From Nitrospinota bacterium (GTDB taxonomy: Bacteria > UBA8248), in contig JAYGFR010000265.1 of the NCBI GenBank assembly GCA_046581755.1, positions 1 to 23,092 on the forward strand: 23,092 nt of DNA, in the 5' to 3' direction. Made by a program: the position numbers and the translations under genes. Position 1 is the stretch's first letter. Each line of letters opens with the position of its first letter. Below the pieces are notes generated by a model. It did not search any database and had not been told where the DNA came from. It worked only from the letters and a program-made list of their open reading frames with translations. Shown here one piece after another: positions 14,291 through 21,197 of the stretch.

Positions 14291-14750
14291 GGAAACGGCG
14301 CCCTCTCGGTGTGGCCGGTGGCTCCCGGCCTCCCGTCGCGAAGTGTATGAACGGTACCGTCACTATGGAGCGAATCCCCCGGAAGTCAATCCCGGCGGGC
14401 GATCCCGGGCCCGCGGCGGAAAATATCCGCCCCCCCCTCCTTGCCCGCCTTTTATTTTGCCGGTACCATACCAGCAAATATATTCACACCAGTTCATTTC
14501 ATGAATTCGGGGGGCGATCATGCCATCGCGCGCCGGTGGCGGTGAAGCGGCCGGGGAAGACTGAATGGCCCGGATTTTGAAAAAGGGAGAGCGTTCCCGC
14601 ATCATTCCGGTTAGAATGCGCCGGGAGAGACAGACCGCCGCGGCGAGGCGATGGCGGCCAGCCCAGCCCGGGCGCTCGAAGTTGTCCGCCAGGGGGCGCT
14701 CTTTGGGCCGAGTCTCTGAGCCAATTCTCTAGGCTGATTGGGAGAAAACC

Positions 14751-14888
14751 ATGGATATGCTGATCTTCATACTGATTCTGGGGGGGTTCATCCTCTTCAA
14801 GCGGCTTCCGGATGAGCAAAGGAAGCATATACTCCTGCGCCTCGAGTACGAACTCCACAAACGGGGATTTATCGAATACAGGGACTGA
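14751..14888 (+). CDS. Putative 45-aa single-pass membrane protein (not in ORF track)
   Basis: GGGAG RBS 6 nt before ATG. MDMLIFILILGGFILFKRLPDEQRKHILLRLEYELHKRGFIEYRD: hydrophobic N-terminal helix and charged tail. Confidence 0.6.
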   Translation: MDMLIFILILGGFILFKRLPDEQRKHILLRLEYELHKRGFIEYRD

Positions 14889-15090
14889 GGCAGACACCCC
14901 TCGACCCGCTTCCGCCCGGGCGCTAGACTCATTTTTCCCCCGGACATCCTCCCACCCTACTGATCGTTAGGGAAGAAGACTAGCTGTACACCTAGAGCAT
15001 TCAGACAAATCCATCTCCTCCCACGAGAGGCTCTTTCCGAGAACAGGCCAAGTTCTTTTCTGTGATTACAAGGGGCGGACAGAGCCCGAG

Positions 15091-15420
15091 ATGGTGAAGC
15101 GGAGGCCAGTAATCTTAATCTCAAGATATCGGAGATTCGACCCCGGAACATGCACGATCGTCCCTCTGAGCAAAACCGCGCCCCGCCAAATCGAAACCCA
15201 CCATTACAAGATGCCGGAGGGTATTCTCCCGGCAGAGATGGATAATGGAGATTCTTGGGTAAAATGCGACATGATTGACACCGTTTGCTATCAAAGGCTC
15301 AATCTGGTCCGAACCAAATGGGTGAATAGGCAATGGCAGTATTTTACCGCGGTCCTGCCATCCGAGGTGATGGCCGGGATTCAGGATTGCGTGCGCCATG
15401 CTCTCTATCTACATAACTGA
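15091..15420 (+). CDS. PemK/MazF-superfamily endoribonuclease toxin, YifN-like
   Basis: EPEMVKRRPVILIS, CTIVPLSKTAP, WVKCDMIDTVCYQRL motifs. Family-like sequence (FPRTGQVLFCDY) continues in frame upstream to ~15031 without a canonical start codon. Confidence 0.85.
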   Translation: MVKRRPVILISRYRRFDPGTCTIVPLSKTAPRQIETHHYKMPEGILPAEMDNGDSWVKCDMIDTVCYQRLNLVRTKWVNRQWQYFTAVLPSEVMAGIQDCVRHALYLHN

Positions 15421-15455
15421 TATTAAAGGGTTTATAATTTTGTGGTACAAATGTA

Positions 15456-15484
15456 TCCACAGAGCCGATAAATTGATGTAGATT
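15456..15484 (+). promoter_or_regulatory. Sigma70-like promoter for the downstream RNA
   Basis: TCCACA (15456-15461), 17-nt spacer, TAGATT (15479-15484), predicting a start near G15491. A perfect TATAAT (15433-15438) and the imperfect palindrome TGTGGTACA-aa-TGTAtCCACA (15441-15461) lie just upstream. Confidence 0.5.
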
Positions 15485-15490
15485 AATAGT

Positions 15491-15626
15491 GTCACCGCTT
15501 CGGAGGGCATGGAAGACCGTCCCTAACCGGGCGGCAGGCCCCACAATATGGCAACGACAAGCCTAGTGGGGTCTCAGATGTACGGTGTCCCTGAAACCAT
15601 GCCCTCGGGCGGGGTTTCAGGGTTAT
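15491..15626 (+). ncRNA. Candidate structured small RNA downstream of the PemK-like toxin
   Basis: Consecutive hairpins: cUUCGg hairpin (15491-15508); CCGTCC/GGGCGG (15517-15534); AGGCCCCAC/GTGGGGTCT (15536-15574) with inner GGC-AACGACAA-GCC; then a terminator-like hairpin. No credible ORF. Confidence 0.6.
15589..15626 (+). terminator. Intrinsic terminator-like hairpin
   Basis: Perfect 10-bp inverted repeat CCCTGAAACC (15589-15598) / GGTTTCAGGG (15613-15622) with inner GCCC/GGGC. Short TTAT tail, so the U-tract is weak. Confidence 0.6.
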
Positions 15627-15783
15627 GGACGCACCGGTTCGGGATACCGGATATCCGTATTTCCAAATTTTCAAAAAAAAATAGAATCTAACCAACCCCG
15701 CCCCCGCATGATCGCTGAATTCCCCGGTGGCGGCGGGAGTGAAAATCCCGCCCAAAGGGCCCCTCCCCGCCTCCACCCAAACC

Positions 15784-16764
15784 CTAGACGCAGTGGGGCA
15801 GGACCTCCTTGGCGAAAAGCTCCAGCGATTCGTCGAAATCCTGGGAGGGGGGGTCGATCATGATGCTTTTCACCCCGAAGCTTTCGATCTCCTTGATGCG
15901 CCGGACGCAGTCCTCGGGGGTGCCGGTGATGGTGAATCGGTCGAGGATGTAGTCGGTGATCAGGGGGATGTGTTTGGGGTGGCGCCAGTTGGTCACGTCA
16001 AAATTGTCGAGAAGGTTTTGGATCTCGGGCCGGAACTCCTCGGGGACGGAGTCGAGGGTCATCCTGAAGTTGTGATGCGCCCGGTTGGCGACGCGGGGGC
16101 GGACCTTTTCGCGGGCGGCGCGGGCGTCGCGGTCCACGGAGACGACGGCGCCAAAGATGATGTCCATCTCGCCGAGGCCGGCCTGGCGCTCGGCGATCCC
16201 CGCGTTCAGGTGTTTCATCGCCCATTCGACGGTTTCCTTGTAGACGCCGGAGCCGACGATGACGCCGTCGGCGATTTCACCGGACATCCGGAGGGTCTTG
16301 GGGCCCTCGGCGGAGGTGTAGACGGGGATGTCGCGCTGGCTCCAGATGTTGACGTTGACGCCTTCGGCGTATTCGACCGTCTCGCCCCGAGTGAGGCTTC
16401 TGATCTGGTGGATGGCGGTGCGCATGGAGGCGAGGCGGGCCATCTTTTTCCCGAGGGTGTAGACGGGGGTGTCGCCGGAGCCGATGCCGAAGAGGACGCG
16501 CCCGCCGGCGAGTTCATCGAGGGTGGCGATGGCGCTGGCGGAGACGGAGTTGTCGTGCAGAACGGGGTTGGTGACGCCGGGGCCGATCGGGATGGTGGAG
16601 GTGTTCATGATAGCGACGGCGAGGGCGACGTTGTGATCCCGGCAGGTGAGGTGGCTTTCGGCCACCCAGACCTGGACAAATCCGCTGTCCTCGGCGAATT
16701 TGGCGCGTTTGGCGAGGAGGGGGATGTCGTCGGGGACGAGGTGAAGGCTGAAGCTGACTCCCAT
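15784..16764 (-). CDS. LLM-class flavin/F420-dependent oxidoreductase (Mer-like)
   Basis: AEDSGF..VWVAES, IGPGVTNP..H, ATLDELAGGRVLFGIGSGD, AEGPKTLRMSGEIADGVI, ITGTPEDC, FAKEVLP. AAGGAG RBS before ATG 16764. The ORF-track extension to 17319 is non-coding. Confidence 0.92.
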   Translation of the reverse strand: MGVSFSLHLVPDDIPLLAKRAKFAEDSGFVQVWVAESHLTCRDHNVALAVAIMNTSTIPIGPGVTNPVLHDNSVSASAIATLDELAGGRVLFGIGSGDTPVYTLGKKMARLASMRTAIHQIRSLTRGETVEYAEGVNVNIWSQRDIPVYTSAEGPKTLRMSGEIADGVIVGSGVYKETVEWAMKHLNAGIAERQAGLGEMDIIFGAVVSVDRDARAAREKVRPRVANRAHHNFRMTLDSVPEEFRPEIQNLLDNFDVTNWRHPKHIPLITDYILDRFTITGTPEDCVRRIKEIESFGVKSIMIDPPSQDFDESLELFAKEVLPHCV

Positions 16765-21111: not shown

Positions 21112-21197
21112 TCGCGATAATGGCATACCCACCGCGAGGTGGGGACGCAAAAACACAAGTCAGAGGGACCTCGGCTGATGGTTGGCCTGCCGAACGA
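21112..21197 (+). promoter_or_regulatory. c-di-GMP-I (GEMM-I) riboswitch-like aptamer, partly degenerate
   Basis: CGATAATGGCATA-CCCACC-GCGA-GGTGGG-GACGCAAA...TCAG...CTGA-TGG-TT-GGCC-TGCCGAA follows the GEMM-I pattern GGCAAACC-stem-GNRA-stem-GACGCAAA-second stem-TGCCGA. Deviations are GGCATA for GGCAAA and an unpaired base of the second stem. Confidence 0.72.

Follow-up and report, generated by a model that had tools for sequence, protein, structure and literature searches.

A folded non-coding RNA that lies beside YifN-like PemK/MazF genes is a conserved family spread over many phyla. Judging from sequence comparisons, we propose, with a probability of roughly 0.6, that this RNA is the single-copy antitoxin of a MazF/PemK-fold toxin, and that it would bind and inhibit the RNase in a type III-like manner. 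To our knowledge, RNA antitoxins occur in just a handful of toxin families. If the proposal is true, a further RNA-antitoxin family exists, carried by plasmids, prophages and the majority of E. coli genomes; an RNA can take the place of the protein antidote of a type II-like MazF; the common annotation of these toxins as “orphan” is explained; and a published orphan E. coli sRNA acquires a function. The case was taken up from an earlier note on a 23,092-nucleotide stretch of DNA from a Nitrospinota bacterium (contig JAYGFR010000265.1), here called the window, to which all coordinates refer.

In the window, the toxin gene occupies positions 15031–15420 (+). Its translation matches Pfam family PF02452 (E = 1.6e-11; 44.8 bits against a cut-off of 23.1) and shares 36–42% identity with its nearest relatives, which carry YifN-like annotation. 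The earlier note’s identification of a YifN-like PemK gene is thus borne out, and NCBIfam and PADLOC assigned no family to the window toxin. The lower-GC islet that had been described around the gene is present but modest, and it consists chiefly of the gene (G+C of 0.513) and the spacer (0.286); the RNA stands at 0.614, the flanks at 0.57–0.61, and the genome at 0.60.

A structure model of one homologue (L001; pLDDT 94.6) adopts the MazF fold, and its best Foldseek matches are type II MazF/PemK proteins. The model aligned with type II MazF at Z = 14.9 (rmsd 2.1, 112 aligned), compared with Z = 10.0 for CptN (rmsd 3.0, 111 aligned) and 5.7–6.6 for ToxN/AbiQ; the family protein is structurally nearer to type II MazF than to either of the others. 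Two residues, R29 and S51, are invariant across 62 aligned rows. They align with R29 and T52 of E. coli MazF, positions that we take to be catalytic, and on the basis of this invariant Arg-Ser pair the family protein is probably an endoribonuclease toxin. The family proteins are about 140 residues long and basic (mean net charge +6.8), and they carry near the C-terminus a G-x-R-x-Y hairpin, a basic element that is a candidate for RNA contact. A genome scan returned 402 protein relatives, of which the best 80 loci were used in the comparisons below. The family comprises at least 2,745 protein clusters at E ≤ 1e-10, the RNA having been checked in part of them, and the module is found on small plasmids and prophages. 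The genome that holds the window also contains a second toxin-gene fragment (L091, contig C357:20071–20238), which represents the 3′ part only and has 68% identity over 53 residues; there was no match to the RNA model beside it.

The conserved core of the RNA lies at 15490–15577 (+) and scores 40 bits with the covariance model, in whose seed the window is included. On the same strand, the core comprises helix P1 with a UUCG loop (15495–15506), a linker, an AAG-A-C junction with a bulged A at 15516, helix P2 (15517–15522 paired with 15529–15534), helix P3 (15536–15544 paired with 15566–15574), and an apical helix P3a (15550–15552 paired with 15561–15563) that closes an eight-nucleotide loop (15553–15560). 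A terminator-type hairpin at 15589–15622 (+) has a mismatch of A15599 opposite G15612. All four hairpins of the folded stretch of about 135 nt that the earlier note had described were found, and the folding of 15488–15630 gave z = −3.93, with one of 200 shuffles equally stable. Two of the hairpins needed correction in their details: the one given as cUUCGg is present but interrupted by a G-A mismatch, and the terminator stem is present but without a U-tail. A suggested GACA/TGTC pseudoknot did not hold up as a trait of the family; the letters are there, but a 4-bp match is attained in only 7 of 59 cognate pairs, and non-cognate loops do as well. No tandem repeat family was detected within 14700–15800. 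Separately, 15494–15512 is 79% complementary to 15597–15615, and the 5′ end of the RNA might thus pair with the terminator hairpin in a possible alternative fold.

Does this fold recur beside other YifN-like genes? The consensus begins with NGU-W-CCCG, followed by P1, a short linker, and an R-A-G-(bulged A/U/C)-C junction that opens P2; the 3′ part consists of a G-C, the long P3, and an apical 3-bp helix around an eight-nucleotide loop that mostly reads GANNRCAA. Applied to 49 sequences aligned with plain MAFFT, RNAalifold returned 11 pairs, nine of them with double changes. The full structure, drawn by the analyst from the same alignment, has double changes in 18 of its 20 pairs (0 of 500 shuffles), and 86% of its cells are paired, as opposed to 29–50% with slid partners; the value of 93% obtained after fitting to the covariance model is biased by the fit. 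Across 68 non-redundant copies, with one weak second match at L045 removed from the structural alignment, the twelve strongest covarying column pairs all fall within helices. No Watson-Crick covariation was seen among the loop bases, and those that are invariant cannot show any, so that a pseudoknot other than the suggested one may exist. The bulged base is coupled to the apical closing pair (MI of 0.41), which may reflect shared ancestry. Together, the covariance model and the covarying helices supply the conserved structure beside homologues that had been anticipated.

A cmscan of Rfam 15 found no family over the RNA in the window or in 34 other loci (20 run at the gathering score and 14 at E = 0.1), so the novelty claimed for the RNA stands by this check. 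The Rfam pemK motif, a Firmicutes motif near pemK genes, was among those without a match at the same loci, and its association with PemK genes is one of name only. A match to Giardia RNase MRP upstream of the RNA, at E = 0.49, was discarded as noise. By eye, three loci (L016, L049 and L079) keep P1-P2-P3 with loss of the CAA loop; these three have in common a small upstream ORF, which is YgaP-like in L049.

The gene and the RNA are tightly linked. The covariance model matches 75 of the 80 loci (the best 80 of 402), including 29 of the 34 that lie outside its seed; the five misses include three weak matches at the expected place (E of 0.03–0.3) and one contig end. The RNA is single-copy, as had been claimed: the genome search yielded one copy, and each locus one model match, except for one weak extra match. 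The model also matches beside homologues on plasmids, in a Vibrio prophage and in a Neisseria record. Among 101 genomes of one family, for which 43 RNA candidates were scored per genome, the RNA and the gene occur in the same two genomes, where they are adjacent. The distances between RNAs correlate with those between proteins (rho of 0.59 over 59 pairs; 0 of 2000 permutations). On a quick tree, two changes suffice for the bulge-U subtype vs. 15.6 when shuffled. At the level of sequence, this distance correlation shows co-inheritance across phyla, which linked DNA could explain without physical contact.

The linkage is looser from the side of the RNA. Metagenomes scanned with a pattern returned 101 matches, of which 80 were examined; the model confirmed 77 of these and did not match three. 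Fifty-eight of the 77 copies lie beside the gene (51 near full, seven partial), 13 have no gene despite at least 500 nt of upstream sequence, and six are on pieces too short to tell. In viral contigs, 42 pattern matches resolved into 18 strong model matches and 22 without a model match; two weak ones (23.6 bits; L120 and L132) were left out of the 18 because they lie inside a terminase gene. Of the strong viral copies, 11 stand beside the gene or a part of it, one is at a contig edge, and six are alone (two of them near-identical). The lone copies are preceded by unrelated genes, by IS transposases or by remnants of the toxin C-terminus. The lone viral copies (L101, L138, L113, L114, L106 and L122) have terminator-like hairpins, and some are placed behind repressor-region or integrase genes; they are candidate remnants or decoys. 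Given the metagenomic and viral copies without a toxin nearby, the RNA may lead an independent existence. That the RNA without the toxin is fairly common and the toxin without the RNA rare fits an antidote.

Stand-alone copies with terminators, found in phage contigs and beside unrelated genes, could also be expected of an independent mobile-element sRNA whose tie to the gene is their common cargo sites; the protein itself would then be harmless, poorly expressed, or restrained by a second protein whose gene lies elsewhere, and many homologues do lack a clear ribosome-binding site by eye. We consider this explanation improbable. The linkage at 75 of 80 loci extends across phyla and was kept through inversion and relocation; the RNA subtypes track protein clades rather than host phyla on a quick tree; and several of the lone copies are those that adjoin IS transposases or toxin C-terminal remnants.

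The RNA appears to be transcribed on its own account. Across the 54 copies whose 5′ end could be anchored, the preferred position relative to the first base of the RNA is −34 for TTGACA and −11 for TANNNT; both boxes are present in 34 of these copies, compared with 0–2 at nine control offsets. A hairpin with a U-tail follows the RNA in 59 of 68 copies vs. 2–8 in controls. By motif, then, the RNA has its own sigma-70 promoter in a fixed register as well as a terminator, in agreement with the separate promotion that had been supposed. In the window, the predicted promoter spans 15456–15484 (+) and consists of a degenerate −35 box, TCCACA (15456–15461), 17 nt, and a −10 box, TAGATT (15479–15484); the pair is real in that it keeps the homologues’ register, but it scores 8/12, below the threshold of the promoter scan. 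The RNA starts no more than 35 nt past the toxin stop codon in 39 of 59 loci, which places the −35 box inside the toxin gene or at its end.

At 67 of 75 loci the RNA follows the gene on the same strand, at five it is convergent, and at three it lies upstream, with its terminator directly 5′ of the toxin ATG. The downstream position reported for the window is therefore usual but not universal, and the existence of all three layouts makes the RNA a separate unit. We infer from the motifs that it is its own transcription unit, its expression being for the most part deduced. A seawater metatranscriptome contig spans 15494–15629 and ends on both sides in adapter-like letters, presumably adapter sequence. 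As evidence of a transcript this amounts to a hint: one contig, at depth 3.5, comes from a relative showing seven differences, has no strand assigned and may derive from DNA, and other contigs also end in adapter. In metatranscriptome runs X1–X4, X5 and X7, the contigs leave the RNA uncovered, which, as they are contigs, bears on its expression in neither direction. A second metatranscriptome contig bridges 15391–15566, thereby joining the toxin stop codon to the RNA. Such a bridge, like the prevalence of the downstream same-strand layout, would be compatible with a 3′ structure that acts in cis within the toxin mRNA, be it a stabiliser, a terminator or a riboswitch for the next gene. This seems very unlikely to us, given that the RNA has a promoter motif of its own, that opposite-strand and upstream copies exist, and that the downstream genes are unrelated between loci.

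A toxin with a neighbouring small RNA that has its own promoter, in a convergent arrangement at some loci, is also what a type I-like system would look like; translation of the toxin mRNA would there be blocked by base pairing with the RNA. Complementarity was compared in 59 cognate pairs and in non-cognate controls. The longest perfect complement was 7.5 nt in cognate and 7.3 nt in non-cognate pairs (p = 0.10), and the start-region duplex −31.5 vs. −29.8 kcal/mol (p = 0.12). With no excess of complementarity over the non-cognate pairs, and with convergent copies that do not overlap the toxin ORF, we give antisense pairing very little credence.

Could a protein antitoxin accompany the toxin instead? 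In the window, the sole upstream ORF (14751–14888, +; 45 residues) has a hydrophobic N-terminus and is covered by metatranscriptome contigs. It was rejected as an antitoxin, as it remained below the cut-off in Pfam, PADLOC and NCBIfam and had no match in 249 loci; lacking a family, it leaves intact the earlier observation that no antitoxin-like ORF adjoins the toxin. Among 79 flanking ORFs, none belonged to an antitoxin Pfam family, and there were one HTH_3, one phage CI repressor and one second PemK. Nor did any family among 608 nearby ORFs occur in more than three of 79 loci. A conserved protein antitoxin beside the toxin is absent in this search of flanking genes, beyond the reach of which a trans-encoded one would lie. 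Of the refuting outcomes named in the earlier note, none that lends itself to computation came about.

If the RNA is the antitoxin, a mechanism can be outlined. The RNA would be made in excess from its sigma-70 promoter, the −35 box of which often sits in the toxin’s last codons, and would act by binding the protein. Its invariant unpaired bases, in the AG-x-C junction and the G/A-A-N-N-N-C-A-A loop, would contact the toxin, perhaps via the family’s basic C-terminal hairpin. Once transcription ceases, through phage shut-off or plasmid loss, decay of the RNA would release the toxin, and the freed toxin could cause abortive infection or addiction. Phage defence by the module is one step further removed, and is put forward as a conjecture.

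Invariant unpaired bases at two sites might equally suggest a docked tertiary fold, and hence an RNA that the protein needs as a cofactor or sensor, forming a ribonucleoprotein licensed or aimed by the RNA, and not a simple inhibitor. There is a precedent of sorts in AbiV, whose RNA is required for phage resistance according to the available part of a preprint (10.1101/2024.05.05.592566). We nevertheless regard a cofactor role as unlikely: the RNA has no variable guide-like single strand, its variable parts being paired stems, and the RNA persists on its own, whereas the protein is rarely found alone.

Viewed as a toxin and its RNA antitoxin, the module resembles several known systems without coinciding with any of them. 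With type II MazEF/PemIK it shares the toxin fold, the Pfam family and the aligned catalytic positions, but it has neither MazE/PemI nor another conserved protein partner. ToxIN/AbiQ, CptIN and TenpIN each have a Kid/MazF-superfamily toxin, a linked non-coding RNA and a terminator, according to the portion of Blower 2012 available to us (PMC3401426). Measured against that portion, the YifN module has in common with ToxIN, CptIN and TenpIN the Kid/MazF-superfamily fold, the linked RNA with terminator and, in three loci, the RNA-terminator-toxin order. It differs in its single RNA copy, the lack of a tandem array and of a supported pseudoknot, and an RNA that is mostly downstream with its own promoter, the upstream order being confined to three of 75 loci. 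By the definitions given in the same portion of Blower 2012 (PMC3401426), the module would work like a type III system yet fall outside the ToxIN type. In AbiF/AbiFr and AbiV, a single non-repeated RNA inhibits an RNase, and a bulge of AbiFr contacts the enzyme, as described in the accessible sections of PMC13064643, PMC12737573 and 10.1101/2024.05.05.592566. As presented in those sections, AbiF and AbiV are HEPN toxins with the RNA upstream, whereas the YifN module has a MazF-fold protein and an RNA that is mostly downstream. A literature search, the scope of which stopped short of subscription journals and motif-survey supplements and which may have passed over another name, returned no description of the gene-RNA pair as a toxin-antitoxin system.

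The window copy itself is likely degraded or decaying, with a gene that is attenuated or pseudogenising. Its frame is open from 15031 to 15420, and the earliest canonical start is the ATG at 15091, within the PEMVKRRP motif. The start lies six residues before the invariant Pro in 55 of 61 aligned homologues; the window reads TCC there and has no ATG, GTG or TTG at the homologues’ start position, and the same is true of all five cluster members. At two conserved sites of the window protein, family positions 52 and 108, T is replaced by K and R by W, residues that 0 of 61 homologues have there; in the −35 box, two conserved bases are lost. About 40 nt before the toxin frame, at 14934–14990 (no strand assigned), is the terminal piece of a dispersed repeat, 56–57 bp long and ending in TGTACA. 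The same genome holds eight other copies at 96–100% identity along with weaker ones, and their flanks diverge past TGTACA. These copies, on contigs C261, C257, C151, C8, C56, C195, C287, C86 and others, fall into two subtypes and are often near contig ends. No transposase was seen beside the repeat at five copies. The repeat is likely MITE-like, the remnant of a small mobile element that would have disturbed the leader of the gene.

Sequences from relatives bear on the state of the RNA. At 15504 and 15553, two metatranscriptome contigs read C and G, respectively; C at 15599 and T at 15540 are found in one. By the pairing in the window, C15504 completes P1, G15553 matches the loop consensus, C15599 completes the terminator stem, and T15540 keeps a G-U pair. 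Since the relatives’ bases restore the helices and the loop, selection seems to keep the fold in close relatives, while the window allele has slipped; the contigs are not linkable to a toxin allele.

The namesake of the family is present in E. coli, where the yifN region occurs in 3,985 of 5,426 genomes. In K-12, yifN is frameshifted and is followed by TTGACA-17-GATAAT in the family’s promoter register. Behind it lies the 79-nt sRNA ecr3777(d+), detected by northern blot (Romero 2014; PMC4681348, seen in part). The 5′ end of this sRNA is the very start base predicted from the −34/−11 register (coordinate offset of 1977, fixed from GlmZ). In the part of the PMC4681348 supplement consulted, the probe labelled ecr3777 misses the yifN region and that labelled ecr2775 matches it; both are marked as detected there, and the two labels appear to be swapped. 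In its position behind yifN, its promoter register, the kind of 5′ end and its terminator, ecr3777(d+) resembles the family RNA. It is unlike it in being 79 nt long, in lacking P3, and in being missed by the covariance model, and the sections of the PMC4681348 text at hand give neither a function nor a link to a toxin. It counts as a counterpart by position and not as a proven family member. A second yifN-type locus has the 5′ part and the promoter in common with ecr3777(d+), and a viral scan that used yifN gave no match.

These strands can be joined into a broader account, which we hold tentatively and with more doubt than confidence. The YifN branch would be a cross-phylum RNA-antitoxin family derived from a type II MazF clade, independent of ToxN and equipped with one relocatable three-helix RNA; it would defend against phages and be countered by phage-borne lone RNA decoys, and the E. 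coli orphan sRNA would be a shortened antitoxin.

The surroundings of the module offer some further observations. PADLOC flagged defence neighbours at about eight loci among 118 ORFs, a count in which four loci had been preselected by a Pfam flag and for which there is no control set; these neighbours, found at a minority of loci, are restriction enzymes, AbiD, DndH, SoFic and WYL. At L035 and L040, AbiD/F-family genes lie less than 1 kb from the module, and two RNA-controlled systems may stand side by side there. Genes for tRNA or tmRNA are located within 2.5 kb in seven of 20 loci. Elsewhere in the window, a c-di-GMP-I riboswitch (21112–21194, +; 50.4 bits) lies over the region where a TRAP permease ORF of the minus strand starts.
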